Origin: Nitrosopumilus sp.
GTDB taxonomy: Bacteria > Desulfobacterota > Binatia > UBA1149 > SPBQ01
NCBI GenBank assembly: GCA_964225545.1
Contig: CAXQPB010000034.1
Span: forward strand, 23,853-87,852
DNA: 64,000 nucleotides
Direction: 5' to 3'
Shown: positions 13,153-46,789 of the stretch, piece by piece
How the letters are laid out: each line of letters begins with the position of its first letter
Numbering within the stretch: the first letter of the stretch is position 1
Made by a program: the position numbers and the translations under genes
The notes under the pieces: generated by a model
Databases searched by the model: none
Told to the model about the DNA's origin: nothing
The model's input: the letters and a program-made list of their open reading frames with translations, nothing else

Positions 13153-15249
13153 TCAGCGGAAGAAATAGTCCTTGAGCTTCGGCAGCTCGGAGTCAATCTG
13201 CGCCCCCGGGGCGTGCGGCATGAACGGCCCCGGGCCGACACCCGCACGCGACGCGGCGAGCGCGTAGCCGAGGCCGTCGCCGACATCGACGATGAGTCTG
13301 TCGGTTTTGCCGAGGATCTGCAGGGGAACGCGGAGCTGGCTCTCAGAGTCGACCAGCTCCCGCAACGCGGGATCGAGATCCGTCAGAGCCGTCGTGAGTT
13401 CGGGGCCGACGATCAGATTCCCCGACAGCGCCACCGTGCGATCGAACCCGACGAACCCTTCGGCCTCGAGGCGCGCACGCGACAGATTCGCTGCGAGTGA
13501 ACGGACAGCGAGCCCGTCCTCACGGGTCTCGAAATCGAAGGCGAAGCGGCGAAACGCAGTCGTCTTCTCGGCCATCGCGCTCGGATACGCAGCCGCGAGA
13601 TCCTTGACTGCCTCCGGTTTTCCGAGCGTCTCCAGCACGGATGTGAGCACGGCACGGATCAATCCGGTCCCGCTGATTTCACCGCGGTGCAGACCGATCC
13701 GGCCGATCACCCACGGCCCGCGGCTTTCGTTGTAGCCAAGCTCGTAGATCGAATCCATGCGGCCTTTCACATGAAGCCCCGCACCCGGCACAACATTGGC
13801 AGCGAACTGCGCGGCATCGAGATCGTCGAGGTAGCCGCCTCCGTCACCGGTCTCGGTCTCGAGCCTGTAAAGCACGTACAGATCGCCGCTGCCGTCCCAT
13901 ACCTGCTGCTTCCGCTCCACGAAGCGCACTTCATCTTTCCAGTACGTGACCGCGAACGCAGGGTCGGGAATTTTCGCGTTTCCCGCGATCAGCTCCTTGC
14001 CCAGGCACGACACGGAAAGCTCCGCGTTGATCGCAAGCACGCTGCCCTGACAGCTCAGCCCCGAGGCGCGCAAGGACACCAGCGGCAGCAGGCCGTCGAA
14101 GCTGAACTCCGGGATAACCGTTTTGTGTCTTTGAAGCACCTTGGCCATGGAGCCGGTAATGCGCAGCGTGCTGTCGATCGTGGCCTCCGCTCGCCAGCGT
14201 TCGGGGACTCCGAGGTACGACAGTGTCGAGTCGACATCGGCGCCTTCGGTCGTTAGACGCAGGTTCATCTTCCTGTCGCCGGTCGGGTCCATGTATCCGG
14301 TCAACTCGAACGGCACGGGCCCCCATTTCAGCCCGCCCCGGTTGATGCGCAGCTGTCTGGGGTAGAGGCGGGTCTCGGCATTGAAAGAAAGAAGTTCCTT
14401 GCGACTCGCGAATTCGAAACCGACCGTTCCGGTCGCATCGATCTCCAGCGGTTCCGCAGGCGCGCTCTCGTTGCCGAGATCCCCGACCGGTCCGCGAATC
14501 GAGCCTTCCATATCGATCCGGTCCGCGAGCGGGACACCCTCGAAAACTCGAAAGACGTGCGCGAACGCTGCGGGCAGGGTGTTCTCCACCCGGAAGGTAA
14601 GAGCGATTTCAGGAGCGCCGTCCGCGTCGCCCGCCGGGGTTATCGAACCGCTTGCTGCAGCGCTCGAGCCCGAACCGAAGCCTCGCGACGTCAGCTCGAA
14701 TGCAATCGGATCTCCTGCGGCCCGCGCGGGCGCCGTCAGATCGAACTCGACCGCCGTTTCTTCGTCACCGGGAGCGAGCCGACTCATGAACACGGTCGCG
14801 TCGTGGAGCACGATCGGGAACCCCTGTTCGCCGGCGACGAGGCCGGCGACGGGCCCGGAGGCGGCGCGCAGGCTCGCCGAGTCGAGCGGCCGACCGGCCC
14901 GCAGCTTCGGGTTGAAAACATCGACACGCTGAACGGCGAGTCGGCCGGCAAGCAACGGCCCGATCTTCGGAGTGATTCGCAGGTTCGGAACCTCGACGAG
15001 GACCTCACGCTCCGTCTCGCTCTGCTCGCGATTGCCACCCTTGCTCTTGTAGATCTCGATGCCTCTGACATCGAAACCCGGAGGGAACACCGAGACTCCG
15101 ATCGAGCCGCTGTCGAAACTCGCGCCAACCGATTCAGCGAGCTCCGCTCCACGCTCGCTCGCGGATCGGCTTACTGCCGAGCGAGCCTGCCAAAGGCTGA
15201 AGCCCGCCCACGCCACCACCACAGCCAGCCCGATGAGCACCTTACGCAT
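13153..15249 (-). CDS. AsmA-family / TamB-like outer-membrane biogenesis protein (N-terminal signal anchor, long beta-rich body)
   Basis: The signal anchor MRKVLIGLAVVVAWAGFSLWQA is present, and the size and composition fit AsmA-like proteins. Family assignment is by overall pattern only. Confidence 0.5.
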   Translation of the reverse strand: MRKVLIGLAVVVAWAGFSLWQARSAVSRSASERGAELAESVGASFDSGSIGVSVFPPGFDVRGIEIYKSKGGNREQSETEREVLVEVPNLRITPKIGPLLAGRLAVQRVDVFNPKLRAGRPLDSASLRAASGPVAGLVAGEQGFPIVLHDATVFMSRLAPGDEETAVEFDLTAPARAAGDPIAFELTSRGFGSGSSAAASGSITPAGDADGAPEIALTFRVENTLPAAFAHVFRVFEGVPLADRIDMEGSIRGPVGDLGNESAPAEPLEIDATGTVGFEFASRKELLSFNAETRLYPRQLRINRGGLKWGPVPFELTGYMDPTGDRKMNLRLTTEGADVDSTLSYLGVPERWRAEATIDSTLRITGSMAKVLQRHKTVIPEFSFDGLLPLVSLRASGLSCQGSVLAINAELSVSCLGKELIAGNAKIPDPAFAVTYWKDEVRFVERKQQVWDGSGDLYVLYRLETETGDGGGYLDDLDAAQFAANVVPGAGLHVKGRMDSIYELGYNESRGPWVIGRIGLHRGEISGTGLIRAVLTSVLETLGKPEAVKDLAAAYPSAMAEKTTAFRRFAFDFETREDGLAVRSLAANLSRARLEAEGFVGFDRTVALSGNLIVGPELTTALTDLDPALRELVDSESQLRVPLQILGKTDRLIVDVGDGLGYALAASRAGVGPGPFMPHAPGAQIDSELPKLKDYFFR

Positions 15250-15389
15250 GAGGTTAAAGCCTGCCGCCCCGATCCTGATTCCGCGCCCACGAGCCACCTG
15301 ACAACTGTCGCCCTTCGTCGTTCGACGTTGACTGGCTCTCGCCGCCGCGGTAGCCGGATAGTAATCGGCGCTGGATCGCCGGGCAACCA

Positions 15390-16181
15390 ATGAACTCGTA
15401 CGAAAGCATTACGGTGAAAATCGATTCCGGAATCGCGCGGCTGACGCTGAACGACCCGGACCGGCGCAACGCGATGACCCTCTCGATGGGGCGGGAGATC
15501 GAGTCCGCGGTCGAATCTCTCAACGCGGAGCAGGACGTCCGCGTGGTCATCGTCAGCGGTGCGGGCAAGTCCTTCAGCGCCGGCGGCTCACTCGCGACGC
15601 TGGCACGACAGGCCGGCATGGAGGTCGATGGCGAGGACATGGGCGGCGGCCGGGTGTTCTACAACGCGTTCCTTTCACTGCGCGCGCTGCAGATGCCGAC
15701 CATCGCGGCGATCAACGGTCACGCCATCGGAGCCGGGCTTTGCTTCGCGCTCGGTTGCGACATGCGCATTGCCCACGAGCGCGCGAAGATGGGGATGACG
15801 TTCGTGAAGCTGGGCATTCACCCCGGCATGGCGGCGACCTGGAACCTGCCCCGCCTCATCGGTCCGTCCGCCGCTGCGGAGCTGCTGTACACGGGCCGGA
15901 TCATCGACGCCACCGAGGCGCTGCGTATCGGCCTGGTCGGCCGCGTTGCCGGTGATGACTTCGCTGAAATTGTCGATTCGACGGCGCGGGAGATCAGCGA
16001 GAACGGGCCGGTCGCCCTTCGACTGCTCAAAGAGACGCTCGCCGGCACCGCGGGTCGCACCATCGAGGAAGCAGTCGGTCGTGAGGCCGACGCCCAGCAG
16101 CAGACCTTTGAAACCGAGGACGCCCGCGAGGGCATCACGGCAATGATGCAGAAACGCTCTCCGCGCTTCAGCGGACGCTAG
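15390..16181 (+). CDS. Enoyl-CoA hydratase/isomerase (crotonase family)
   Basis: The crotonase fold signature (VVIVSGAGKSFSAGGSL...INGHAIGAGLCFALGCDMRIA) is present. Confidence 0.85.
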   Translation: MNSYESITVKIDSGIARLTLNDPDRRNAMTLSMGREIESAVESLNAEQDVRVVIVSGAGKSFSAGGSLATLARQAGMEVDGEDMGGGRVFYNAFLSLRALQMPTIAAINGHAIGAGLCFALGCDMRIAHERAKMGMTFVKLGIHPGMAATWNLPRLIGPSAAAELLYTGRIIDATEALRIGLVGRVAGDDFAEIVDSTAREISENGPVALRLLKETLAGTAGRTIEEAVGREADAQQQTFETEDAREGITAMMQKRSPRFSGR

Positions 16182-33701: not shown

Positions 33702-34157
33702 TTACTGGGTTTCCAGGTCGCAGGCCGAGCGAACAGACGCGGCCTGCGACTCGATGCCGTCGAGCCTGATTCTGAACGACTCGACCATACGCTCATCGAC
33801 TTCCTCAACGCGCGCGCGGTCGAGTTCATCGACAAAGACTTGATACCGGTCCGCGAGGCCCTCGAGGCCGCGGAACGAGTCCGACCCCTCACGCGAGCTG
33901 CGGGAGACATCCATGAAGTGGCGGGCACGCTCGAGCGGATAGCGGAGGCGTTCGATGTCGGACGGCGTCAGCGGCCGGGTCCCCTGCGCGAGCTGCGCCT
34001 GCGCGTCACTGGCCATGCGGGCCATCAGTGACGCGTGCGTGCGCACCAGATCGTGATAGCGCAGCCAGTAACAGGCCGCGGTACCGGCCAGACCGATGCA
34101 CAGAATCAGCCCCGCCAGATGAGCCGGCCGCCCTCTCGAAGTCTCGAACAATGTCAC
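33702..34157 (-). CDS. Hypothetical membrane protein
   Basis: An N-terminal TM helix (LAGLILCIGLAGTAACYWL) is present. No family is recognised. Confidence 0.35.
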   Translation of the reverse strand: MTLFETSRGRPAHLAGLILCIGLAGTAACYWLRYHDLVRTHASLMARMASDAQAQLAQGTRPLTPSDIERLRYPLERARHFMDVSRSSREGSDSFRGLEGLADRYQVFVDELDRARVEEVDERMVESFRIRLDGIESQAASVRSACDLETQ

Positions 34158-34236: not shown

Positions 34237-35334
34237 TTGAAAGAGCTCCCAAAAGTTTACTTCGAACGCCTGCTCGAAAGCTCGCCCGATATCGTTGTCG
34301 CGGCCGACAGCAAAGGGACGATCATTTTCTACAACGACGGCGCAAGAACCGCGCTCGGATTTCAGGCCGGGGACGTTCTCGGCGCTAACGTGGCGTCGTT
34401 CTATCCGACACAGGAAGAGGCCCGCAGGGTCATGGCGGCCATGCGATCTCCCGAGCACGGAGGCGAAGGCCAGCTGAAGAACTTCGAGACGGAGTTTCTG
34501 AACGCCAAAGGAGAACCGGTGCCGGTCGCCGTCTCGGGCAGCGTCATCCACGACGAGAAAGGACGCGTTCGCGGTTCGATCGGGTTCGCGAAAGATCTCG
34601 CCGAGCTGCGTATGCACGATCAGATCGAAACACTCGGGCAGCTCGCGGTCGGACTCGCACATGAGGTCAACAACCCCCTCGAAGCGCTCGTCAACCATGT
34701 CGAGCTGCTCGAGCGCTACATCCGCGACAAGGCGAGCGATGAGGACTATCGCGTCGAGCACGAGCGCATCGATGCGATGAAGCGCGAACTTCGCCGCATC
34801 CAATCAATTGTAGAACGCGTCGGCGAGATGGCTGCATCCGGAGACTACGGAACGATCGAATATCTGCCCGGCCGGCTGATGACCGACCTCGGCCTCGACG
34901 ACCCGGCAGCCATCGGCGAAGCCGCTCCCACCGAGCACCGCGGCGCAGCCTCAGGACACCTCCGCGGGAAGACCGTGCTCGTCGTCGACGACGACCCCGA
35001 CATCTGCTCCTCGATGGCCGCCATCCTTGCAGCCGAGGGCTGCGACATACTGACCTCTCCGTCCGGGGTCGAGGCGCTCAGGCTCATTGCCGGCCGCGAC
35101 GTCGATATCGTGCTGACCGATGTCTGCATGCCCGACATGGACGGCTATGAACTTTTCGCGGAGATCCGCGACCGCCATCCAGAGCTTCCCGTGGTTCTGA
35201 TGACCGCCTACTACTACGACAAGGATCACGTCATCAAACGCTCCAAAGCCAGTGGGCTGAGCGACGTCATCTTCAAGAAACCGATCGATCCGACACGCCT
35301 GGTCGAGCTCATCGACGCCCGCGTTGGCGGTTGA
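34237..35334 (+). CDS. PAS-HisKA-receiver protein lacking a catalytic HATPase domain (atypical two-component protein)
   Basis: The N-terminal PAS domain is followed by the H-box LAHEVNNPLEAL (HisKA). The C-terminal REC domain has VLVVDDDPD, LTDVCMPDMDG and the conserved Lys in FKKP. Only about 90 aa separate HisKA from REC, which is too few for an ATP-binding domain. Confidence 0.7.
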   Translation: MKELPKVYFERLLESSPDIVVAADSKGTIIFYNDGARTALGFQAGDVLGANVASFYPTQEEARRVMAAMRSPEHGGEGQLKNFETEFLNAKGEPVPVAVSGSVIHDEKGRVRGSIGFAKDLAELRMHDQIETLGQLAVGLAHEVNNPLEALVNHVELLERYIRDKASDEDYRVEHERIDAMKRELRRIQSIVERVGEMAASGDYGTIEYLPGRLMTDLGLDDPAAIGEAAPTEHRGAASGHLRGKTVLVVDDDPDICSSMAAILAAEGCDILTSPSGVEALRLIAGRDVDIVLTDVCMPDMDGYELFAEIRDRHPELPVVLMTAYYYDKDHVIKRSKASGLSDVIFKKPIDPTRLVELIDARVGG

Positions 35335-35380: not shown

Positions 35381-36031
35381 TTGGCGATCCGAATCAACAA
35401 GGTCTACACGCGAACCGGCGACGACGGACTCACCGGAGTGGTCGGTGGCGAGCGCGTCCCCAAAACCAGTCCACGCATCGCCGCCTACGGCGATGTCGAC
35501 GAACTGAACAGCGTAATCGGTATCGTCAGAGCGGAGCTCGCAGATGTACAGGATGCGGCGGGCGGGCAATCTGCACGCGAGCTCGATACCACGCTCGGGT
35601 TCATCCAGCAGGAACTCTTCGATCTCGGCAGTGAACTGGCGACGCCGCCGGAGGCGGAGTACGAGGGTATGATCCGTATGGGCGAAGACCAGGTGACGCG
35701 CCTGGAGTCGTTCATCGATGATCTCCAGTCAGAGCTCGAGCCGCTCGAGTCGTTTGTACTCCCCGGCGGCGGAAAAGCAGGAGCGATGCTCCACCTTGCG
35801 CGTACGGTCTGCCGCCGAACCGAACGCCTGGTCACCGGACTGGTCCAGGGCGAAGACGCGTCGGTCTGGACGGCCCGTTATCTGAACCGGCTCAGCGACC
35901 TTCTGTTCGTACAGGCACGATGGATCGCCGCTCGCACGGGGCATGCGGAGACCCTCTGGCAACACGGGCTGGAGGTGCCCGAGAGGCGCAAAGACGCTCG
36001 CGAAAGCGCGAACGGAAAGAACGATGAGTGA
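35381..36031 (+). CDS. ATP:cob(I)alamin adenosyltransferase, PduO type
   Basis: MAIRINKVYTRTGDDGLTG...SPRIAAYGDVDELNS is the MMAB/PduO family N-terminus. Confidence 0.8.
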   Translation: MAIRINKVYTRTGDDGLTGVVGGERVPKTSPRIAAYGDVDELNSVIGIVRAELADVQDAAGGQSARELDTTLGFIQQELFDLGSELATPPEAEYEGMIRMGEDQVTRLESFIDDLQSELEPLESFVLPGGGKAGAMLHLARTVCRRTERLVTGLVQGEDASVWTARYLNRLSDLLFVQARWIAARTGHAETLWQHGLEVPERRKDARESANGKNDE

Positions 36032-36704
36032 GGGGATCTACCTCAAGCAGCTCGAGATCGGCCCCATGGCCAACTACGTTTACCTGATCGGAGATCTGGA
36101 AACGCGTGAGGCGATGATCGTCGATCCGGCATGGGACATTCCAGCGATCCTCGACGAACTCGACCGCGACGACATGAAACTGGTCGGCGCGCTCGCCACT
36201 CATTTTCACCCCGATCACATCGGCGGCTCAATGATGGGTCATGAGATCCCGGGCGTCCCGGATCTGCTCGCCCAGCGCCCCACAAAGATCTTCATTCACA
36301 AGGAAGAGGCCCCGTATGTGAAACAGGTCCTCGGGATGGAGACCAGCGACTTCGTCAAGGTCGATGGTGAGACCACGGTGAATGTGGGACGAATTCCGAT
36401 TCGTATTCTGCACACGCCTGGCCACACACCGGGTTCGATCTGCTTCCTCGTCGATGGGAACCTGGTCTCGGGCGACACGCTGTTCATCGGTGCCTGCGGC
36501 CGCGTGGATCTGCCGGGATCAAGCGCCGAGCAGCTGTACTACAGCCTGACGCAGAAGCTCAAGAAGCTGCCGGACGAAACGGTGTTGTATCCTGGGCACA
36601 ACTACTCATCGGCGAAGACCAGCACCATCGAGAACGAGAAGCGGACCAACCCGTATATGCGCTTTGAGAGCGTGAACGACTTCCTGCGAACGATGGGGTA
36701 CTGA
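36024..36704 (+). CDS. MBL-fold metallo-hydrolase (glyoxalase II-like)
   Basis: The metal-binding motif THFHPDHIGG is present. The start overlaps the pduO stop by 8 nt. Confidence 0.8.
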   Translation: MSEGIYLKQLEIGPMANYVYLIGDLETREAMIVDPAWDIPAILDELDRDDMKLVGALATHFHPDHIGGSMMGHEIPGVPDLLAQRPTKIFIHKEEAPYVKQVLGMETSDFVKVDGETTVNVGRIPIRILHTPGHTPGSICFLVDGNLVSGDTLFIGACGRVDLPGSSAEQLYYSLTQKLKKLPDETVLYPGHNYSSAKTSTIENEKRTNPYMRFESVNDFLRTMGY

Positions 36705-36920
36705 GCCGCGCCCGGCAGGCTTTCAAGCCACCCGTTTTGCGCAGGGCCGCTTGCGGTTCCGGACACCTTTCACTCCTTGCCCCCCCTACAGGGTAGCCCG
36801 CTGCCGCGGGTGCTTAGCGCACCGCGGCATTGACGACAGCGCTCAAACCCCCCGAAAACGCGAACCCGAGGTCACTACTTATTGACCGCACAAACCGCGA
36901 CGCTCAATCGGCTTCCTCAC

Positions 36921-36950
36921 TTGACAGAAATCGAGCGGCGCCAGTATTTT
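36921..36950 (+). promoter_or_regulatory. Sigma70-like promoter (TTGACA, 18 nt, TATTTT) heading a roughly 170-nt leader upstream of the Cys-rich protein gene
   Basis: Seen directly: TTGACAgaaatcgagcggcgccagTATTTT. An AAGGAG RBS lies 9 nt before the ATG at 37124. Confidence 0.35.
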
Positions 36951-37123
36951 CCCCGGGCGTTCGCGCGGCGGCCCGTCTGGACTGCCGACGGACCGGGTCA
37001 GAGGCGGAAGCGACTCACGTCGTTGTCCATCCTGCGCTGAAAAGAGATTTTCACAGTTTCGGAACGCCGGTCGGGGCGGAAGCCTCGGGGGATCCCATAC
37101 TTACCATTAAGGAGAATACAGGT

Positions 37124-39178
37124 ATGAAGGGCAGATCGATTTCTAAGGTCATCGCCATCTGCGGCGCTGTCGCATTCAGCTTCGCAAGCGCCGCCCAGGC
37201 GCAGGTGACGGGCGACGACGCCAAGTGCCGCGCCACGATGAACAAGGGCGCAGGCAAGTACGCATCAACGGCGAACAAGGCCGTCATTGGCTGTTTCAAG
37301 GACGCCACGAAGGGCAAGAACGCGCTGACAAGCTGTACGGACCCGACGACTGCCGACACCAAGGGCAAGGTTCCCGGTGCGCGACAGAAGCTCGTCGACT
37401 CGGCCGCCAAGTGCGCGGCGCTCCCTCCAAGCTATGTGACGTGTCCCTCTCCGGGAACGGTCGGAGCCATCGGCACCACGAGCGACCTCGGAAACTGTCT
37501 GGGGGAGGTAGTGGAACCAGCCGCCGGAATCGGCACTGTCGAGACCTTCTGGAACTACATCCTTCGGGCCAACCCGCAGGATGCGATCTGGCAGGACAAG
37601 AACGCCAACAAGTGCATCAACTCGATCACCAAGAACGCGGGCAAGCTGTTTGACACCGTCATCAAGACCTGCGGCAAGCTGCAGGCCGGCAGTGACAAAG
37701 GCGGCGGCCCTTACGCCTACCAGTACGACGCGACCTGCGACGACAAAGGAAAGATCGGAAAGTCTGTCGTCAAGCTGAACGATGCAATCGCCAAGGCATG
37801 CACCCCGGCACCGGCCGGAACCATGACCGCGCTCCAATCGTGCACGACCGACATCTCCGAGCTCGGCAGCTGCATCGCAGCCTCGGCGCGGAAGACGGCG
37901 TCGGGCGTCAGCGGTGTTTCTTTCTCGATGCCGGGCGTCTGCCCGGCGTCGGTAACCGTCATCGGCCTCGGAACGGTTCAGGTCCCGGGCGAGAACACAG
38001 CCACCAGCCTGAGCGTCGGCCAGAGTGGCCTCGGACACAATGCGGAGCTGCCTGAGGGCTTCAGAGGCGCCGTCAGCCTCAACTGCGCAGCATCAAGCGG
38101 CACCTGCGACACCTGCGCAGTCACGGCGTCCTGTGCAGAAGGCAACTGCCGCTGCGAAAACGACCCGACAGTCACGTGCGACGAGCCGTTCGGCCCGGAT
38201 GCTGACAATTGCGCAGGCAACAACTGCAAACTGTTCTTCGCGGCGCCTCTTCCGCTCTCCGCCGGCGGTGCCTTCACCTGCGTCGTCAACGAAATCCCGA
38301 GTGATCTCGTAGGCACGGCCAATATCGGCACCGGTCAGTCGAACACCGCGGTCGCCAACTCGTCGTCGATCTGGATCAACGGCACGCAGAGCCGGCCGTG
38401 CCCGGTCTGCGAGGGCGATCCCACGCCGAACGACGGAGTCACGGGCGGAACCTGCAGCGGCGGCCAGCAGAACGGCGGCGCATGCGACGCCAACTTCATC
38501 AACCCGGTATTCGGAAACACCAGCTACGACTGCCAGCCGACCAATGGTCAGTCGGTAGCAACGCTGAGCCTGCAGATCGACTTCAGCGATACGGACAAGT
38601 CCAAGGCATCCGACGTAGTCTGCACGTCGGGCGATCCCGCAGGCTGCCCGTGTAACGTCTGCAGCAGCGACCCGACGATCCCCTGCGATTCGGACGTTGT
38701 CTGTGCAAACGCGGGCGCCGGCACCTGCACCTCGGCCGGACCGGGCGCACCCACGGTGTCGAATGGCTGCGACACGCTTGACTGCGGCGCCGACGGCTTC
38801 TGCGCTGATGGAACAAGCACCCTTTCGTGTGACGGATTCACAAAGCAGGGCGGCGGCGGCATTATCGGCTGCACAACGAACGCTGACTGCACGGCCCTCG
38901 ACGCCGAGTGCCCCGGCGGAAGCTGCGGAAACTGCACACTGCTCGAGCCGCGGGCGTGCTTCCCGAACCCGATCGTCAACGACTCGGGCGTTCCCGCCAC
39001 CGACGGCGCGATCCTCACAGCGCAGTTCTGCGTGCCACCGAGTGGCACCGGAGTGGATCAGGCAGCTGGAACCCCCGGCGCGGGTGACCTGACCATTCAG
39101 TGGGACTTCGTCGGCCTCTGCGACGATGGCTCCACGGTCTACGAGCTCGGAGGCAACAACTGCCCTCCTGCCCCATGA
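37124..39178 (+). CDS. Secreted, extremely cysteine-rich protein (684 aa), unknown family
   Basis: A strong RBS and a signal peptide MKGRSISKVIAICGAVAFSFASAAQAQ are present. The mature protein has more than 60 Cys in irregular CxC/CxxC/CxxxC spacings and Gly/Thr/Asp/Asn-rich low-complexity stretches. The N-terminal third is Lys-rich and carries two related K-C-x5-K-x-AGK-x10-C segments. Codon usage is native. The track ORF is trimmed to the internal ATG. Confidence 0.6.
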   Translation: MKGRSISKVIAICGAVAFSFASAAQAQVTGDDAKCRATMNKGAGKYASTANKAVIGCFKDATKGKNALTSCTDPTTADTKGKVPGARQKLVDSAAKCAALPPSYVTCPSPGTVGAIGTTSDLGNCLGEVVEPAAGIGTVETFWNYILRANPQDAIWQDKNANKCINSITKNAGKLFDTVIKTCGKLQAGSDKGGGPYAYQYDATCDDKGKIGKSVVKLNDAIAKACTPAPAGTMTALQSCTTDISELGSCIAASARKTASGVSGVSFSMPGVCPASVTVIGLGTVQVPGENTATSLSVGQSGLGHNAELPEGFRGAVSLNCAASSGTCDTCAVTASCAEGNCRCENDPTVTCDEPFGPDADNCAGNNCKLFFAAPLPLSAGGAFTCVVNEIPSDLVGTANIGTGQSNTAVANSSSIWINGTQSRPCPVCEGDPTPNDGVTGGTCSGGQQNGGACDANFINPVFGNTSYDCQPTNGQSVATLSLQIDFSDTDKSKASDVVCTSGDPAGCPCNVCSSDPTIPCDSDVVCANAGAGTCTSAGPGAPTVSNGCDTLDCGADGFCADGTSTLSCDGFTKQGGGGIIGCTTNADCTALDAECPGGSCGNCTLLEPRACFPNPIVNDSGVPATDGAILTAQFCVPPSGTGVDQAAGTPGAGDLTIQWDFVGLCDDGSTVYELGGNNCPPAP

Positions 39179-39223
39179 TCCCGTAGGACCTGCGGCGAGC
39201 CAGAGCGAATCAACACCGATGGT

Positions 39224-39317
39224 GGGCAGCCTTGTTCTCGAAGGCTGCCCGCCTGAGGTCGATTTGCCTGTCCGAGAGCCCCCATACCCGCCAGCGGGTT
39301 TGGGGGCTTTCTTTATC
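39224..39317 (+). terminator. Tandem hairpins ending in a T-tract: rho-independent terminator of the Cys-rich gene
   Basis: The first hairpin is GGGCAGCCTT-gttctcg-AAGGCTGCCC at 39224-39250. The second is AGCCCCCAtACCCGccagCGGGTtTGGGGGCT followed by TTCTTTAT at 39277-39317. Confidence 0.6.
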
Positions 39318-39414
39318 CGCCCGGCTCGCCTAGGTTTCTCCCACCTCGTTTCGCCGTAGGGTGTCTTTTCTGCGCTTTCCGGCAACGACACCACAACAAG
39401 GAGTTGTTCCGAAG

Positions 39415-40569
39415 ATGTCGATCCAGACCGACGCCTGGGTGCTGCATGCAGGCGAAAAGGGCGCAAAGCCCGTCCGTACAGAACTCGTCCGCGAGACCTT
39501 CGAGATGCCGGCCGCCGGCCCCGACGAGGCGGTATGCTCGCCTCTTTTCGGCTGCCTCGAGGGCAACATGGCCCACGCCGTCCAGCGCAAGCCGATCGAC
39601 ATCTGCGTCGCACGCGGAGAAGAGAAAATCGTGATCGGCAACGCGGGCGTTCTGCGCGTCGAGGAATGCGGCTCGGAGGTAACGACCGTGAAGCCGGGGG
39701 AGCTCGCGATCCTGTTCTGCGTCGGCAACCCCGACGAGTACGGCTACCCGCGGCAGATCTTCGGTTACGATACCCCGGGCACGAGCGGTGTCCTCGCCAA
39801 AACGACCAAGTTCAACCAGCACTCGTTGATCCCGATTCCCGAGAATTCGAAGTACTCTCCGGAGGAGTGGGCCGCGTTCTCCCTTCGATACGTCACCGCG
39901 TGGTCCAACTGGGAGCTGGCATACGGAACGCTTAGACTGCTTCTCGATGAAGAGGAACTCCCGCATCCCGAGGTCTGGGGCTGGGGCGGCGGTGTGACGC
40001 TCGGTGAGCTCGCGCTCGCCAAGCACTACGGATGCAATACGGCGCAGATCGCATCGACGGATGACCGCCTCGCGACCATCGAGAAGCTCGGGATCCGGCC
40101 TGTCGACCGGCGCGAGTTCATGGACCTGTACTACGACAAGGGCCGCTTCAAGAAGGACGAAGATTACACCGCGCGCTACGGAACGGCGGAGAAGCTCTTC
40201 CTTTCGAAGGTCAAGGAGATGACCGACGGCAAGCTCGTCAACATCTTCCTCGATTATGTCGGCGTCCCCGTACTGCGCGCGACGCTCAAGGCTCTGGCTC
40301 GTCAGGGCATCCTCGCGACGGCAGGCTGGAAAGCCGGAATGATGATCGAGCTGGTCCGAGCCAGTGAGTGCATCGCACGCCATCAGCACATCAACACGCA
40401 CTACGCGCGCTACCGCCAGGGTCTCGACGCCGTCGCGTTCGCCGAGAAGAACGGCTGGCTGCCGCCGCTCGACGGCAAGGTCTACGGCTTCGACGAGGTT
40501 CCGCAGATGATGAAGGATTACGAGGACGACAAGGTCGGCTGGTTCCCGATCTTCGCGGTCAACGACTAG
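39415..40569 (+). CDS. MDR-superfamily (zinc-type alcohol dehydrogenase-like) oxidoreductase
   Basis: A GroES-like N-terminal domain is followed by the Rossmann motif GWGGGVTLG. An AAGGAG RBS is present. The specific subfamily is not resolved. Confidence 0.55.
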   Translation: MSIQTDAWVLHAGEKGAKPVRTELVRETFEMPAAGPDEAVCSPLFGCLEGNMAHAVQRKPIDICVARGEEKIVIGNAGVLRVEECGSEVTTVKPGELAILFCVGNPDEYGYPRQIFGYDTPGTSGVLAKTTKFNQHSLIPIPENSKYSPEEWAAFSLRYVTAWSNWELAYGTLRLLLDEEELPHPEVWGWGGGVTLGELALAKHYGCNTAQIASTDDRLATIEKLGIRPVDRREFMDLYYDKGRFKKDEDYTARYGTAEKLFLSKVKEMTDGKLVNIFLDYVGVPVLRATLKALARQGILATAGWKAGMMIELVRASECIARHQHINTHYARYRQGLDAVAFAEKNGWLPPLDGKVYGFDEVPQMMKDYEDDKVGWFPIFAVND

Positions 40570-40590
40570 ACCGCAGCGAGGTTTCAGAAC

Positions 40591-41475
40591 ATGACTATCA
40601 ACAAGATCGCCATTCTCGGCGGGGGACAGATGGGCGCCGGAATCACCGAGGCGGCTGCATCACGCGGCGTCGAGGTCGCGCTGATCAAAGCCACCCCCGG
40701 ATCCTCGGATGCCGCTCGCGCGGGAATCGAGAAGAGCCTCGAGCGCCTGGTCAGCAAGGAGAAGATCAGCTCCGATGACGCCCAGGCGACCATGTCGCGC
40801 ATCACCTTCACCGATGACCTCAACGCCGCGTCCGGCGCGCAGCTGTTCGTCGAGTCGATCATCGAGGATCTCGAGACGAAACGGAGCAAGTTTGCCGCGG
40901 TCGACAAGATCGTCGGCCCGGAGTGCATCCTTGCGAGCAACACGTCAACCCTCGGCATCGCAGACATGCAATCGGCGACCGAGCGCAGCGATCGTTTCGT
41001 AGGACTGCATTTCTTCAATCCGGCTACCGTCATGAAGCTCGTCGAGGTCGTGCCGACCGACACGACGAACGCATCGGTGACAGCAGAACTCGTCGAGTTC
41101 GTCGAGCGTATCGGCAAGACGCCCGTACTGGTCAAGGATCGTACCGGCTTCATCGTCAATCGGCTTCTGACCCCGTACATGTGCGACGCTATTCGCGCGC
41201 TGGAGTCCGGACTGGCCGACATCGCGGGCATCGATACCGCCATGCAGCTCGGTGCCAATCACCCCATGGGGCCGCTGTCGCTGGCCGACTACATCGGCCT
41301 CGACATCGTGTGCGCGATGGCTGAGAACCTGCACTCCAGTTTCGGCCACGACTACATGGCTCCGCCTGAGATGCTCAAGAAGCTGGTCGCGGCCGGGAAT
41401 CTGGGACGCAAGACGAAGCTCGGCTTCTACGACTATTCACAGAGGCCCCAGGTTCCGAACGGCGAACTCGGCTAG
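40591..41475 (+). CDS. 3-hydroxyacyl-CoA (3-hydroxybutyryl-CoA) dehydrogenase
   Basis: IAILGGGQMGAGI is present with a C-terminal 3HCDH domain. Confidence 0.85.
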   Translation: MTINKIAILGGGQMGAGITEAAASRGVEVALIKATPGSSDAARAGIEKSLERLVSKEKISSDDAQATMSRITFTDDLNAASGAQLFVESIIEDLETKRSKFAAVDKIVGPECILASNTSTLGIADMQSATERSDRFVGLHFFNPATVMKLVEVVPTDTTNASVTAELVEFVERIGKTPVLVKDRTGFIVNRLLTPYMCDAIRALESGLADIAGIDTAMQLGANHPMGPLSLADYIGLDIVCAMAENLHSSFGHDYMAPPEMLKKLVAAGNLGRKTKLGFYDYSQRPQVPNGELG

Positions 41476-41487
41476 GCGGCGGCCCGG

Positions 41488-43014
41488 ATGGAGGCCGCGA
41501 CTCAGGCATCCGCAGGCGAGACCGAGCGGCCGGTCACCAACCCCGCCGACGGCACCACCGCGGGCGCGGTGCACGTCCATACTCGCGACGAGGTGGCCGC
41601 GGCCGTCGTGCGTTGCCGCGAGGCGCAGGCCAGCTGGGCTACTCTGAGCTACAGCCAGCGCGGCCGGCTGCTCAAGCGCTATCGGGATGCATTGCTCGAT
41701 GCGCGCGACGAGATCACCGACGTCCTGTGCCTGGAGACGGGCAAGCCGCGCGCCGACGCGCTCGGGGTAGAGCTGCTCTACGTCTGCGACGCGATCGGAT
41801 TCTGGGCGAAACAGGCAGGTCGCTACCTGTCCGACCGCGTGGAGCGACCGCACCTGCTGAGAACCAAACGCGCCTACTCGACCTACAAGCCGCGCGGAGT
41901 GATCGGAATGATCACGCCGTGGAACTTTCCGCTGGTCCTGAGTGTCGGCGAGGCGATCCCCGCGCTGATGGCGGGCAACGGTGTCGTCATCAAACCATCG
42001 AGCGAGACACCGCTGATCGCCGAGCTCTGCACGCGCATTGCGGACCAATCGGGATTGCCAGCCGGTCTGCTCAGCTGCGTGACCGGAAGCGGCAGAACCG
42101 GCGATGATCTGATCGACTTCGTCGACATGATCTCGTTCACGGGAAGCGTCGAGACCGGCCGCAAGATCCAGATCCGCTGCGCCGAGCAGCTCAAGCCCTC
42201 GACAATGGAGCTGGGCGGTAAGGACCCGGCGATCGTCTGTCGCGACGCCGACCTCGAACGCGCGGCCAACGGCTGCGTCTGGGGCGGGCTGACCAACGCC
42301 GGGCAGGTCTGCATCTCGATCGAACGGATTTATGTCGACGAGCGCGTCTACGATCCGTTTGTCGAGAAGCTTGTCGAGAAGGTCTCGGCCCTGCGTCAGG
42401 GACCGCCCGATGCGGACGCGGACATCGGCTGCATGACTTCAGAGTCGCAGCTGCGCGAAGTCGAGGAGCAGGTCGAGGATGCCCGCGAACAGGGCGCGCA
42501 GGTTCGCTGCGGTGGGCGCCGCGTCGAGGGTCGCAGCGGGTTCTGGTACGAGCCGACTCTGATCACCGGTGTTACCAGTGAGATGAGGATCATGCGCGAG
42601 GAGACCTTCGGACCGGTTCTGTGTGTGCAGAGCGTGAGCGACGAGGCCGAGGCGATCCGCCTGGCCAACGACTCCCCGTTCGGCCTCTCAGCGTCGGTAT
42701 GGTCGCGTGACAAACAGGGTGCGACCAACATCGCCCGGCGCATCGAGGCCGGCGCAGTCTGCGTGAACGATCATATGGTCCATATGTTGATCCCCGAAGT
42801 GCCGATGGGCGGGGTCAAAGAATCCGGCATCGGGCGCCGACACGGGGCGGAGGGAATCCGCAAGTACTGCGATCAGCAGACGCTGGTCGTCGACCGTTTC
42901 GGCCTGCGCAGCGAACCGATCTGGTATCCGGCGCCGCGCGGACGCGAGCGGATTTTCCGGCGCATGCTCAACGTGCTCTATCGTTCCGGCTGGCGGAACA
43001 AGCTGTTCGGCTGA
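41488..43014 (+). CDS. NAD(P)-dependent aldehyde dehydrogenase family protein
   Basis: The ALDH catalytic region MELGGKDP...NAGQVCISIERIYV is present. Confidence 0.85.
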   Translation: MEAATQASAGETERPVTNPADGTTAGAVHVHTRDEVAAAVVRCREAQASWATLSYSQRGRLLKRYRDALLDARDEITDVLCLETGKPRADALGVELLYVCDAIGFWAKQAGRYLSDRVERPHLLRTKRAYSTYKPRGVIGMITPWNFPLVLSVGEAIPALMAGNGVVIKPSSETPLIAELCTRIADQSGLPAGLLSCVTGSGRTGDDLIDFVDMISFTGSVETGRKIQIRCAEQLKPSTMELGGKDPAIVCRDADLERAANGCVWGGLTNAGQVCISIERIYVDERVYDPFVEKLVEKVSALRQGPPDADADIGCMTSESQLREVEEQVEDAREQGAQVRCGGRRVEGRSGFWYEPTLITGVTSEMRIMREETFGPVLCVQSVSDEAEAIRLANDSPFGLSASVWSRDKQGATNIARRIEAGAVCVNDHMVHMLIPEVPMGGVKESGIGRRHGAEGIRKYCDQQTLVVDRFGLRSEPIWYPAPRGRERIFRRMLNVLYRSGWRNKLFG

Positions 43015-43046
43015 ACAACCGGCGCTGCTTTTCGCAGCGGCGGACA

Positions 43047-43991
43047 CTACTCCAGGCGTCGGGCAGCCTCGCCGAGCCCCGACGCCGCAGCCCGAAGTCG
43101 CGTCACCATTTCGCGGACATCATCGGGCCCATCGAGCCAGCGCTCGGGGACAGCCCTCGACCCGAGGTGAGCCCCGCACAACGCGCCCGTCATCGATGCG
43201 AGCGACCGGGCACTGCCGCCCAGAGCAGCCGCCGCGGCAACTGCGGAAGGCAGGTCGTCACTGAAGCGAGCGAAGCAGTACGCAGCAGTCACGACCGAAC
43301 CCAGCGCGGTCTCGCCGTTGCCGAGCTTGTCGATCACACGCCGCGCATCGGGCTCACGTTCGGTCATGCGCGCAGCTTCTTCGTAGCGAACGCGGTACTC
43401 CCGCAAAGAGGCCTCGCGCCCGACCGAAATCAGGAACCCTGCCGGTGAGATCTGAAGTCCGTGACTGCCCGCAGCGATCGCAACCGCAAAGGCCTGCATC
43501 GCGGCCCCCTCGGCACCGAGCGAATGCTGATGGGTGATCGCTGCGATCTCCTCGGCGGTCCATCGCAGGACATCGACGTCCGCCCCGAAGAGCAGCCCCA
43601 CCGGTGCGGTTCGCGTCGCGGCTCCGTTGCCGTACGACGAACGCCCGCCACCGCCCGCACCGGCCTCCTGCCAGTCGACACCGCGCCGCAACCTCTCGAT
43701 CGCCGTCCATGTCGCCTGGCCGTAGCCGCGACCGCGCTGGGCGCCTTCTGAAAGCCGCCGCGCCATATCCGCACCGTCGAACTCGGGCGCGGCGACAAGC
43801 CCTTCGGCAACCGCCGCGGACATCTCGGTGGAGGAGCCGTAGGTACCGGGCCTCGCCTCGATAAGGTTCTCCGCAGCCCCGTGACGAGCCACAACGACGG
43901 CCGGGGTCAGCCCCTCGCAGAGCGCACCGATGCGGTCCCCGGCGAGCACGCCAAGCAAACAACCCTCGATCTGTTCAGGCTCTTCAAGCAA
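43047..43991 (-). CDS. ADP-ribosylglycohydrolase family protein (DraG-like)
   Basis: The N-terminal GCLLGVLAGDRIGA pattern and the size fit the family. The fold call rests on pattern match only. Confidence 0.65.
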   Translation of the reverse strand: MLEEPEQIEGCLLGVLAGDRIGALCEGLTPAVVVARHGAAENLIEARPGTYGSSTEMSAAVAEGLVAAPEFDGADMARRLSEGAQRGRGYGQATWTAIERLRRGVDWQEAGAGGGGRSSYGNGAATRTAPVGLLFGADVDVLRWTAEEIAAITHQHSLGAEGAAMQAFAVAIAAGSHGLQISPAGFLISVGREASLREYRVRYEEAARMTEREPDARRVIDKLGNGETALGSVVTAAYCFARFSDDLPSAVAAAAALGGSARSLASMTGALCGAHLGSRAVPERWLDGPDDVREMVTRLRAAASGLGEAARRLE

Positions 43992-44047
43992 GGGCGGCGA
44001 TTATGGCAGAGCCGCAGCCCATGCGATAGAGTGCGGCGCGCCTCGCG

Positions 44048-44965
44048 ATGAAGAAGTTATTGATAACAGGCATCTCCGGCGGCCAGGGTCGCCTTGTCTC
44101 GCGCCGTGTGGCCGGCAAGTGGAGCGTCACAGGCGTCGATCGCATCCCCTGGGAGGGCGCACCGGAAGACCTCAGCGTCCACGTCGTCGATCTGCGCAAA
44201 AGTAGATTCGATAACGTTTTCCGAGTGGAGAAACCGGACGCGGTCGTACACCTGGCGTTTGTCCGACATTTCCGTGGGGACCCCGAGGTTCGCCACGAGG
44301 TCAATGTCGCCGGAACCCAGCGGCTGCTCGAAAACTGCGCAGAGCATGGGGTAAAGCAGCTCGTCGTCCTGTCCAGCTCGTACGTCTACGGAGCCATGCC
44401 GGAGAACCCGCGATACATTCGGGAGGGTCACCCGCTCAACGTCTCCAGAACCTTCCCGGAGATTCGCGATCTCGCCGAGGTCGAGGGGCTCGTCGGAACA
44501 TTCATGTGGCGCTATCCGGAGATTGCGACAGCGATCCTGCGGCCCGTGAACACGCTCGGGTACTACGGACACAGTGCGGTGGGTCGCTACATGAGACTCG
44601 AAACGGTGCCGACGGTGATCGGCTTCGACCCCATGATGCAGTTCATTCACGAGGAGGACGTCGCCGAGGCGATCGTAACGACGCTCGACCACAATCTGCG
44701 GGGTGTTTATAACGTCGAGGGCCCGGGCGCGGTCCCTCTGACCACGGCGCTCGAGGCGGTAGGGGCCCATACTCTGGCGCTGCCGGATCCGGTCGTGCAT
44801 TTCACGATCTCCTCACTGTTTCGCCTCGGGCTTTACCAGTTTCCGCCATCCGCGATCGACTTCATCAAGTACGCGTGTACGGTCAGCGGAGAGCGTTTCC
44901 GCGAGGCAACGGGGTTCAAACCGCTGTTTTCCCTCGAAGATATTTTCTCGAGCGTGCAACGCTGA
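44048..44965 (+). CDS. NAD-dependent epimerase/dehydratase (extended SDR)
   Basis: LLITGISGGQG is the Rossmann motif, with YxxxK downstream. Confidence 0.75.
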   Translation: MKKLLITGISGGQGRLVSRRVAGKWSVTGVDRIPWEGAPEDLSVHVVDLRKSRFDNVFRVEKPDAVVHLAFVRHFRGDPEVRHEVNVAGTQRLLENCAEHGVKQLVVLSSSYVYGAMPENPRYIREGHPLNVSRTFPEIRDLAEVEGLVGTFMWRYPEIATAILRPVNTLGYYGHSAVGRYMRLETVPTVIGFDPMMQFIHEEDVAEAIVTTLDHNLRGVYNVEGPGAVPLTTALEAVGAHTLALPDPVVHFTISSLFRLGLYQFPPSAIDFIKYACTVSGERFREATGFKPLFSLEDIFSSVQR

Positions 44966-45009
44966 GCGGCCGGACCCGTGGTAAGAGCAACGGTCAACGG
45001 ACGAACGAA

Positions 45010-45894
45010 ATGAGAATCGGCGATCTGATACCCAACCTGCCCGGTCTCGCCGCGCTGCCCGGCGGTGACACGATCGAACGACTTCTGATCGAGGTTGACG
45101 AGCGGGTCGACGCCATCCCCTGCTCGCTGAACGAGTACGGTTTCGACCCCTGGGGCTACAGCCCCGACTTCTTCAAGCAGTTCATTCTGCCGAGCGTGGT
45201 CATGTACCGGTACTACTTCCGCTGCATCACCAAGGGCGCCCATAACATTCCGGAGGGTCGCTGCCTGCTGATCGGCAATCACGCCGGCCAGGTCGCCTTC
45301 GATGGCGCGATGGTCAGCGCGGCGACGATCCTGGAGGCCGAGCCCCCGCGCCTCGCCCGCGCGATGGGTGAGTACTGGCTCGGTACACTCCCCTGGTTCA
45401 GCGTTCTTCTCGACCGGATCGGCAGCGCGGTGGGGACCCGACAGACCTGCGCCGATATGCTCCGCGGCGGCGAATGTGTCCTCGCCTTCCCCGAGGGCGT
45501 CCGGGGAATGAACAAGGTCTACGCCGACGCCTATCAGCTTCAGGAGTTCGGCCTCGGCTTCATGAGGCTCGCGCTCGAGACCGATACTCCGATTATCCCG
45601 TTCTCCGTAGTGGGGTCAGAAGAGCAGGCACCGAGCATCGCCAACCTCGAGCGCATCGGTCGTCTGTTCGGGGCACCCGCTTTCCCGGTCACCCTCACGT
45701 GGCCGTGGCTGGGCCCGCTCGGAATGATCCCGCTGCCGACCCGTTATCACATCGAGTTCGGTGAACCGCTCCACTTCGAGGGCGCGGCAAACGACGAAGA
45801 CGATGTCATCAGTGAGAAAGTACAGCAGGTGAAGGACGTCATTCAGGAGATGCTGCGCACGGGGCTGGCCGAGCGCGAGAGCATCTTTTTCTGA
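45010..45894 (+). CDS. Lysophospholipid (1-acyl-glycerol-3-phosphate) acyltransferase, PlsC family
   Basis: HxxxxD block LIGNHAGQVAFD and the FPEG motif are present. I placed the start at the ATG at 45010. Confidence 0.7.
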   Translation: MRIGDLIPNLPGLAALPGGDTIERLLIEVDERVDAIPCSLNEYGFDPWGYSPDFFKQFILPSVVMYRYYFRCITKGAHNIPEGRCLLIGNHAGQVAFDGAMVSAATILEAEPPRLARAMGEYWLGTLPWFSVLLDRIGSAVGTRQTCADMLRGGECVLAFPEGVRGMNKVYADAYQLQEFGLGFMRLALETDTPIIPFSVVGSEEQAPSIANLERIGRLFGAPAFPVTLTWPWLGPLGMIPLPTRYHIEFGEPLHFEGAANDEDDVISEKVQQVKDVIQEMLRTGLAERESIFF

Positions 45895-45895
45895 C

Positions 45896-46789
45896 ATGGA
45901 AACCGGCGGCCGGACTGGACGAAGAATCTTCATCCTCGGTGGCGGCGCCGGGCTCGGCGCCCACCAGGTCGGCGCGCTGAAGTACCTCGAAGAGCAGGGC
46001 ATCAAACCCGACGTCCTGGTCTGCAGCTCGATCGGCGCCATCAACGGCTGTGTATACGCCAGCGGAGGCGTCATCGGACTGGAAGCCGCGTGGAAAAGCT
46101 TCCGCTCGCTGCCGCGCTTTCGACCGTCGCTGCGCGACAATCCGCTCAGCGGCCGCTCGCTGTTCTCGCTGGAAGCGCTCGCTTCCGGCCTTGAAGAACA
46201 CATGGATTTTCCCAAATTGCTCGAGAGCCGGCTCGACATCGAGATCGTGCTTCTGAACCTCTCGCGCGGGCACGCGCAGATGTGGTCGAACCGGGACTGC
46301 CGCGACTGGAAGGAACTGCGCAGCGTCGCGCGCGCCGGTTACTCGATCCCACCTCTGTTCGGTCCGGTCGAGATCCGGCGCGAGCAGTACGTCGACGGCG
46401 GGCTGGCATGGAACGTCCCGCTCGATCACGCGATCGTCCGTGACGCCTCGGAGATCTATATCCTCGCCCCGATCGCGAGCCGCCTTCCGTACCGCTCGCG
46501 GCTCGGCGGTTTCGTCGATTATGCAGGCAGGCTGATCGATGTGCTTTGGAGAACGATCGGCAACACCGGGCACCTGTACGCGCGCATGCAGGACGGCTGT
46601 TACGAGGGGGTGCCGGTCACGATCATCGAGCCGGGCGAGGAGCTGAGCGGCTTCAGTATGCTCGATCTTTTCCACGCGCACCCGGAGAAGTCGTCGCGGA
46701 TGATCGCCGCAGGATACCGCGATGCGAAACGCGCGTTGGCGCGCCCGTTGCCCGCCGAAAGGCCGTCGCGCGTCAGCCGGGCGTCCTGA
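45896..46789 (+). CDS. Patatin-like phospholipase
   Basis: The oxyanion hole GGGAGLGAHQ is present with a GxSxG-type nucleophile region CSSIGAING. Confidence 0.7.
   Translation: METGGRTGRRIFILGGGAGLGAHQVGALKYLEEQGIKPDVLVCSSIGAINGCVYASGGVIGLEAAWKSFRSLPRFRPSLRDNPLSGRSLFSLEALASGLEEHMDFPKLLESRLDIEIVLLNLSRGHAQMWSNRDCRDWKELRSVARAGYSIPPLFGPVEIRREQYVDGGLAWNVPLDHAIVRDASEIYILAPIASRLPYRSRLGGFVDYAGRLIDVLWRTIGNTGHLYARMQDGCYEGVPVTIIEPGEELSGFSMLDLFHAHPEKSSRMIAAGYRDAKRALARPLPAERPSRVSRAS

Follow-up and report, generated by a model that had tools for sequence, protein, structure and literature searches.

A predicted secreted, disulfide-rich protein from a very large uncurated family of Binatia- and Myxococcota-labelled genomes

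Gene structure and expression signals

We analysed a 64,000-nucleotide (nt) stretch of contig CAXQPB010000034.1 (hereafter, the window) and concentrated on an open reading frame (ORF) at 37124-39178 (+) that encodes a cysteine-rich protein of 684 amino acids (aa). A previous reading made from the letters alone (the sequence-only reading) had singled out this ORF as a monocistronic gene for a secreted protein of no recognisable family, and its frame is indeed intact and monocistronic. Judged by sequence comparison, the gene is an ordinary, typical and rather modest representative of a very large uncurated family.

The ORF listing contained a longer frame of 782 aa running from TTG at 36830 to the same stop at 39178. 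The start was aligned at the equivalent MK in all 30 full-length homologues, and contig L012, which is 99.4% identical to the window over 27,123-49,178 (22 kb), carries at 36951, within the stretch that the longer frame would add, a 1-nt indel that would disrupt the TTG-started frame. The longer ORF was rejected on these two grounds, and ATG at 37124 was therefore taken as the real start; the stop codon is TGA (39176-39178, +).

A consensus scan located a sigma-70-type promoter-like site, TTGACA-N18-TATTTT, at 36921-36950 (+), and returned two sites where 0.3 were expected. The same element (TTGACA-N18-TAYTTT) was found 149-203 nt upstream of the orthologues in loci L013, L001 and L002, which are 41-56% identical to the window protein, and its counterpart in L012 has TATGTT. 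Because the element is kept in intergenic DNA that is otherwise unalignable, there is reasonable evidence that the promoter proposed by the sequence-only reading is real. The presumed 5' untranslated leader of approximately 167 nt (36957-37123, +, from inspection of the sequence) contains an AAGGAG ribosome-binding site at 37109-37114, with the ATG 9 nt later, as had been described; GGAGG or AGGAG lies 7-10 nt 5' of the ATG in every orthologue. The length of the leader is kept among the orthologues and its sequence is not. While the leader is long, as had been noted, its predicted RNA fold has no special structure (z = 0.19 versus shuffled sequence), and Rfam gave no meaningful match in the whole window or in a sensitive scan of 36650-39400. 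The idea of a riboswitch or leader RNA was rejected because of these two results.

Downstream of the gene, RNA folding predicted two strong hairpins followed by a U-rich tract (39221-39319, +), which we presume to be an intrinsic terminator. The first hairpin (39221-39253) has a 13-bp stem and the second (39274-39311) an 11+5-bp stem, after which comes UUUCUUUAU. The minimum free energy of the region was -84.5 kcal/mol versus -56.2 +/- 4.1 kcal/mol in shuffled sequences (z = -6.99), which upholds the double-hairpin terminator of the sequence-only reading; a simple consensus scan did not list these hairpins. Codon usage was native, again as proposed: the GC content at third codon positions (GC3) was 0.80 versus 0.797 +/- 0.035, and the codon score was -0.911 versus -0.955 +/- 0.071, across the 27 other ORFs of the window. 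A relative of the protein (P0001) is 96% identical, and a comparison of the gene with a near-identical strain gave a synonymous difference (pS) of 0.073 and a ratio of non-synonymous to synonymous differences (pN/pS) of 0.29. A pseudogene or spurious ORF was rejected on the basis of the 96% identical relative, the pN/pS ratio and the homologue alignment; the gene is intact and under constraint.

Signal peptide and cysteine content

For the leader of the protein, we looked for a positive n-region, a hydrophobic h-region of 10-16 residues and an AxA-type c-region, as in a signal of the Sec/signal peptidase I (SPase I) type. Residues 1-26 (37124-37201, +) comprise, by eye, MKGRSISK, VIAICGAVAFSFASA and AQA as the n-, h- and c-regions, respectively, with predicted SPase I cleavage between AQA and QV. 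This region is kept across 31 homologues, and residues 1-24 were the only disordered part of the predicted model, with a predicted local distance difference test (pLDDT) score below 50. The leader contains no twin-arginine motif and no lipobox [LVI][ASTVI][GAS]C; its sole Cys lies in I-A-I-C13, with Ile at -1. Cys13 is missing from most homologues (it was lost in 117 sequences covering that position). Since Cys13 is not conserved and is preceded by Ile, the leader is not that of a bacterial lipoprotein processed by signal peptidase II. The clean signal peptide of the sequence-only reading was thus found again by inspection, and export of the product through Sec is well supported by the sequence.

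The protein has 49 Cys (7.2% of 684 aa), of which 48 are left after cleavage of the signal peptide. The previous count of more than 60 was too high; the protein is still an outlier in the window, where Cys content averages 1.26% and peaks at 3.4% among the other 27 ORFs. In the alignment of 31 homologues (32-96% identity), over 40 Cys columns show no or almost no variation. Over 207 relatives, Cys residues are gained or lost in pairs, most clearly C183/C205 (phi 0.81), C596/C601 (phi 0.83), C71/C125 (phi 0.89) and C368/C583 (phi 0.72), which is the behaviour expected of disulfide partners. Oxidation of the 48 mature Cys to approximately 24 disulfides is a well-supported expectation, for which the even Cys number, the conserved Cys columns and the paired gain and loss provide indirect support, in agreement with the disulfide-rich protein that had been postulated.

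Two other kinds of Cys-rich protein were considered. A multihaem c-type cytochrome would contain CxxCH; the window protein has no such motif, as had been stated, and its single His (H305) is not preceded by CxxC. Epidermal growth factor (EGF), laminin-EGF or knottin modules would appear as units of 30-50 aa with recurring Cys spacing, visible by hidden Markov model (HMM) or by self-similarity; Pfam gave no match to them, and self-BLAST revealed no internal repeat in the C-terminal part.

Domain structure and predicted fold

AlphaFold2 predictions gave a pLDDT of 87.9 and a predicted template modelling score (pTM) of 0.84 for the full protein with a 31-sequence alignment, and a pLDDT of 93.4 and a pTM of 0.90 for the C-terminal 417 residues with 55 sequences. 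The sequence-only reading had suggested that structure prediction might uncover repeated EGF-like or knottin-like Cys modules, and had described the C-terminal part as low-complexity sequence; the models instead consist of one helical domain and one large beta domain, the latter predicted as a single compact fold. The N-terminal, Lys-rich domain (residues 27-272; 37202-37939, +) is all-helical, residues 30-267 being helical in the model. It comprises two tandem Cys-stapled helical modules of approximately 105 aa, at residues 34-139 (37223-37540, +) and 163-265 (37610-37918, +), which are 30% identical with a pairwise E value of 2e-7; the two related N-terminal segments noticed previously are parts of these modules. 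The C-terminal acidic domain (residues 273-684; 37940-39175, +) holds 36 Cys.

In the model, the core of the beta domain looks like an 8-stranded up-and-down barrel whose ends are both capped by large disulfide-rich insertions. The insertions, of 30, 46-62, 60 and 140 aa, alternate between the two ends, as inferred from the strand order of the model. Column entropy is approximately 1.2-1.8 on the hydrophobic face of the strands, which is conserved, and 2.5-3.3 on the polar face, which varies strongly; a soluble barrel whose outer surface is exposed would be expected to show this pattern. Several strands are short (5-8 residues), Cys residues lie within strands, and the C-terminus (...GGNNCPPAP) has no terminal aromatic beta-signal. 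A Foldseek search of the PDB returned nothing at E<=1e-3.

Because of these conserved hydrophobic and hypervariable polar faces, the long insertions at both ends, the lack of an aromatic beta-signal and the short strands, a soluble rather than membrane-embedded barrel is favoured. The strand number would also suit an 8-stranded outer-membrane barrel of the OmpA/OmpW/NspA type with very large disulfide-rich surface loops, an explanation that we consider very improbable. Such a barrel would have an outward hydrophobic belt, short periplasmic turns and an aromatic beta-signal, and none of these was found: the modelled insertions lie at both ends, the hypervariable polar face appears to be solvent-exposed with no conserved polar lumen, and the C-terminus, the 5-8-residue strands and the Cys residues inside them speak against it. 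There was also no HMM match to an outer-membrane protein.

The C-terminal domain of the window protein has a net charge of -35 and an isoelectric point (pI) of 4.1, and the domain is strongly acidic in all 31 homologues (net charge -15 to -48, mean -33); the helical domain is mildly basic in closer relatives only. Asp far exceeds Glu (48 versus 15), and a GDxxxNDG-type loop recurs on the C-terminal side of the PCPxC motif. These properties could be those of an extracellular cation-binding or matrix protein, in which the acidic, disulfide-stapled domain rich in Asp, Gly, Asn and Thr binds Ca2+ or another metal in a surface layer, a matrix or metal sequestration, and the consensus -35 box and strong ribosome-binding site would be compatible with high expression. 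We consider this explanation unlikely, since there was no match to RTX, TSP3, EF-hand, cadherin or calcium-binding EGF domains, many close homologues have lost the GDxxxNDG loop, and there is no sign of self-assembly or abundance. It also overlaps with a surface protein that needs Ca2+, and to that extent is not exclusive of the function favoured below.

Family membership and conservation

No match to the window protein was found in Pfam and NCBIfam at E<=10. Pfam searches with 31 homologues gave only noise (E>0.1), as did sequence searches of the PDB with the single sequence and with a profile (E>0.5); the HMM searches of Pfam and the PDB that had been recommended thus returned no confident match to a characterised family. 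DUF4215, the Myxococcus cysteine-rich repeat (PF13948, TIGR02232), was matched neither by the window protein (E<=10) nor by the 31 homologues (E<=1), in line with the previous statement that the protein is not of this type. Literature searches on cysteine- or disulfide-rich proteins of Binatia or Myxococcota, and on PMT in Myxococcus, returned nothing, and our searches found no curated family, solved structure or paper that covers the window protein. No paralogue is present elsewhere in the window.

A word-indexed search yielded 58 relatives, all of which are labelled hypothetical and have no Pfam domain. A family profile was then built from 31 full-length homologues (alignment A1) and searched against 1.84 billion cluster representatives; it matched 2,378 clusters (50% identity) at E<=1e-3 and 529 at E<=1e-30. 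The window ORF itself matched the profile over its full length (825 bits, positions 1-687). The named sources of the family are metagenome-assembled genomes (MAGs) labelled Candidatus Binatia, "Deltaproteobacteria bacterium", Myxococcales and Polyangiaceae; Binatia is a class within the candidate phylum Binatota. The claim of no recognisable family therefore holds in the sense that there is no curated one, but with at least 2,378 clusters at 50% identity the protein is neither isolated nor unusual. Its homologues occur in MAGs labelled Binatia, "Deltaproteobacteria" and Myxococcota, and its novelty as an orphan was not borne out.

The motifs LDxGWTGxxH, FGxPLPLSAGG, PCPxC and TSxDC are present even in distant members, and GNCRC also marks the full-length family. 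Non-Cys residues that are as conserved as Cys include K52, D78, K170, G299, G302, H305, R343, S467 and D469. In the wide family, H305 (the sole His), S467, D469, D588 and R343 reach 90% conservation or more, and they might form the active site of a secreted enzyme or toxin. This possibility appears quite remote: neither the sequence nor the fold resembles any hydrolase or toxin, the vicinity holds no gene of immunity-like or secretion-system type, and the neighbours are housekeeping genes in conserved synteny.

Modularity, tandem copies and a linked gene cassette

The beta domain behaves as a mobile module: it makes up whole proteins of 380-420 aa, follows other N-termini, and is present twice, together with the helical module, in ORFs of 1,200-1,711 aa that contain 111-181 Cys (8.6-11.7%); such double-domain ORFs were observed in L021, L026, L028, L037, L045, L054, L067 and other metagenome loci. 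Many family members are far richer in Cys than the window protein, with up to 181 Cys (10-12%). DUF4215 follows the two-domain unit in three long members, one of which also has Lcl_C, Dicty_CTDC and Cohesin. Five relatives of approximately 1,600-1,700 aa consist of the helical module and two copies of the beta domain, and a Pfam scan found no domain in them. An adhesin-type fusion as the general architecture of the large members was therefore not supported, and such fusions rest on three proteins.

Related loci were located with alignment A2 and a DNA pattern for FGxPLPLSAGG. Family members often stand in tandem there, as pairs in L002-L004 and L018 and as triplets in L009 and L020. These arrays lie at 10250-12325 in L002 (and likewise in L003 and L004), 2180-7947 in L009, 6001-11014 in L018 and 1-7716 in L020. 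In L002-L004 the second copy is a 691-aa paralogue directly 3' of the orthologue of the window gene, which itself is single-copy.

Beside distant members on Myxococcota-like contigs, we found a cassette of genes encoding a GT2 protein, a GT2-methyltransferase fusion, an uncharacterised protein of 394-430 aa, a PMT/PMT_4TMC glycosyltransferase (approximately 1,170 aa), a DUF1302 outer-membrane protein and DsbA or VKOR-DsbA. The cassette is present in L009, L015-L019, L020 and 12 metagenome loci; it spans 7993-13912 in L009, 1-11303 in L015 and 1760-11230 in L020, and the loci that show it include L019, L029, L033, L034 and L077. Three independent recurrences of the PMT/GT2/DsbA/DUF1302 linkage were considered and rejected, because the cassette proteins are 68-85% identical between the loci concerned (68-100% over all the cassette loci) and thus represent one clade. 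Neither PMT nor the cassette was found among the window ORFs scanned.

A PMT substrate would be recognised by linkage to genes for PMT (GT39) and a GT2 acting with polyprenyl-phosphate sugars and by glycosylated Ser/Thr. The cassette may be a dedicated system for glycosylation and disulfide formation. Its PMT and GT2 genes suggest O-glycosylation of the distant members, which we treat as a lead only because the linkage is confined to one clade and is missing from the scanned ORFs of the window. The DsbA/VKOR genes would fit a heavy demand for disulfide formation.

The cassette also bears on a further explanation of the beta domain, as a carrier similar to YceI, lipocalins or DynF, that is, a soluble barrel with a lipid, polyisoprenoid, pigment or hydrocarbon in its core, placed in the periplasm or beside an outer-membrane channel. 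The inner strand faces are conserved and hydrophobic, and short family members on Myxococcota-like contigs are encoded directly upstream of the DUF1302 outer-membrane protein gene. DUF1302/DUF1329 pairs of Pseudomonas have fitness phenotypes on fatty esters (bioRxiv 10.1101/2020.07.04.188060), and Binatota genomes have been described as rich in alkane and pigment metabolism (PMC8262859); both were counted in favour of a carrier. We nevertheless regard a carrier as doubtful. HMM searches matched neither YceI nor lipocalins nor any other family, the DUF1302 linkage occurs in the one clade and is missing at the window locus, and in the model both barrel ends are capped by disulfide-rich insertions of 30-140 aa, so that an open entrance may be lacking.

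Genomic context and rate of evolution

In the window, the gene is preceded on its 5' side by genes for HPPK, transaldolase, a PAS-HisKA-receiver protein, cobalamin adenosyltransferase and a protein of the metallo-beta-lactamase (MBL) fold, and followed on its 3' side by genes for a zinc-type dehydrogenase, 3-hydroxyacyl-CoA dehydrogenase, aldehyde dehydrogenase, ADP-ribosylglycohydrolase and an epimerase. This order is shared around the orthologues in L012 (96% identity), L013 (56%), L001 (44%), L002-L004 (41%), L006 (40%) and L007 (33%). The sequence-only reading had described a self-contained unit inserted between housekeeping operons. The single-gene transcription unit stands, but the insertion does not: since the syntenic order is kept across relatives of 33-56% identity, the gene is, by its sequence context, vertically inherited and an old resident of the lineage. 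Recent horizontal insertion was rejected because codon use is native and synteny is conserved.

Identity between the loci is 33-56% for this protein and 60-86% for the products of neighbouring genes. On this comparison, the protein evolves much faster than its neighbours while its Cys scaffold stays.

Of the 130 mismatches between L012 and the window, approximately 118 fall within approximately 35,587-39,000, and there are none over 39,200-45,900. The mismatch tract, of approximately 3.4 kb, runs from the last part of the cobalamin adenosyltransferase gene through the MBL-fold gene and the intergenic region to approximately codon 500 of the gene described here. It looks like an allele imported by recombination or a strain chimera from metagenome assembly; as it represents one event, no statistical conclusion was drawn from it.

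Several other features of the neighbourhood were observed. The upstream regulator (34237-35334, +) has PAS, HisKA and receiver domains with no HATPase_c detected at E<=1e-5, an uncommon composition for a histidine-kinase-like protein, and is kept in all syntenic loci. An ORF of 151 aa (33702-34157, -), whose counterparts have no Pfam family on record, keeps its place between the transaldolase and PAS-HisKA-receiver genes in L012, L001 and L002-L004. Farther away, a 751-aa open frame (13156-15408, -) is native in GC3 and matched no Pfam family at E<=1e-5, and an internal start would give it an N-terminal hydrophobic anchor (MRKVLIGLAVVVAWAGFSLW...). In the more distant syntenic relatives L001 (12353-13948, -) and L002 (14692-16275, -), a PMT_2 glycosyltransferase gene separates the genes for 3-hydroxyacyl-CoA dehydrogenase and aldehyde dehydrogenase, two genes downstream from the orthologue. 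The window and L012 have no such gene at this place, and it is unrelated to the PMT of the cassette.

Proposed function

We favour, with moderate confidence, the interpretation that the window protein is a non-enzymatic extracytoplasmic binding or structural protein, located in the periplasm or at the cell surface; its sequence and the predicted model both point this way, and we only infer its binding or surface role and its ligand. In this Binatia-type bacterium, the single-gene unit would be expressed and its product exported through Sec, with removal of the 26-residue signal peptide, and the 48 remaining Cys would be oxidised in the periplasm to approximately 24 disulfides. The mature protein would then comprise the helical, two-module, Lys-rich, disulfide-stapled domain and the acidic beta domain of approximately 410 residues. 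The rigid Cys scaffold would be kept while the exposed surface changes fast; binding would be the task of the beta domain, with the helical domain serving as a stalk or attachment module.

Several points weigh against this interpretation. The family has no characterised relative, and the protein has no localisation signal beyond the Sec leader, so that a purely periplasmic place is equally possible. Fusions to extracellular modules are limited to the three proteins mentioned above, the five large relatives having no recognisable module. Fast evolution could reflect relaxed constraint instead of surface exposure, and the residues conserved throughout the family (H305, R343, S467, D469 and D588) could constitute a catalytic or metal site.

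A bolder and tentative proposal, which we think has some chance of being correct though it is far from probable, is that the C-terminal module defines an undescribed domain family: a soluble 8-stranded barrel with approximately 18 disulfides that forms the binding head, exposed and rapidly evolving, of major envelope or surface proteins of Binatia and Myxococcota. In one clade or more, it would be produced alongside dedicated machinery for disulfide formation (DsbA/VKOR) and PMT-type O-glycosylation. If so, these proteins would be a bacterial analogue of the disulfide-rich, O-mannosylated surface glycoproteins of eukaryotes.

For the window itself the result is modest, namely a typical single-copy member with no functional partner genes nearby. 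More widely, the analysis describes the predicted structure and the evolution of a large "dark" family, which comprises at least 2,378 clusters (50% identity), has no relative in Pfam, NCBIfam or the PDB and belongs to uncultured, globally distributed lineages (Binatota and Myxococcota-type MAGs). The beta domain is a candidate for a new entry in family databases and, if it is a surface binding module or a PMT substrate, would provide a handle on the envelope biology of these bacteria.

Comparison with known systems

The closest soluble 8-stranded up-and-down barrels are the YceI-like proteins (PDB 1y0g and 5ixh), DynF (6ubl), the PsbO barrel (5g38) and avidin- and lipocalin-like proteins. The window domain shares 3-13% sequence identity with them and has no HMM match to them. 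It is also much larger (approximately 410 aa versus 110-180 aa); approximately 270 of its residues belong to Cys-rich insertions, and the domain contains 36 Cys. The likeness of the modelled beta domain to NspA (1p4t), OmpW (2f1t), OmpA and the N-terminal domains of OprF is most likely one of topology only, since the window domain differs from these in its large insertions at both ends, its hypervariable polar face, the lack of a beta-signal and its many Cys.

Pfg27 (PDB 1n81), a helical protein, is 5% identical to the window protein, and no functional inference from it is justified. Pfg27 is an intracellular protein of Plasmodium gametocytes with two pseudo-repeated helical units and is not known to have disulfide staples.

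The DUF4215 proteins (PF13948, TIGR02232) and other Cys-rich secreted proteins of Myxococcota come from the same lineages as the window family and are likewise secreted and disulfide-rich. DUF4215 repeats follow the two-domain unit in a few family members, and a gene for a DUF4215 protein adjoins a member in L008. They differ in architecture, the window protein being built around one large domain with no short repeats. A secreted Cys-rich protein of Myxococcota-type bacteria with a core of barrel topology is a familiar kind of thing.

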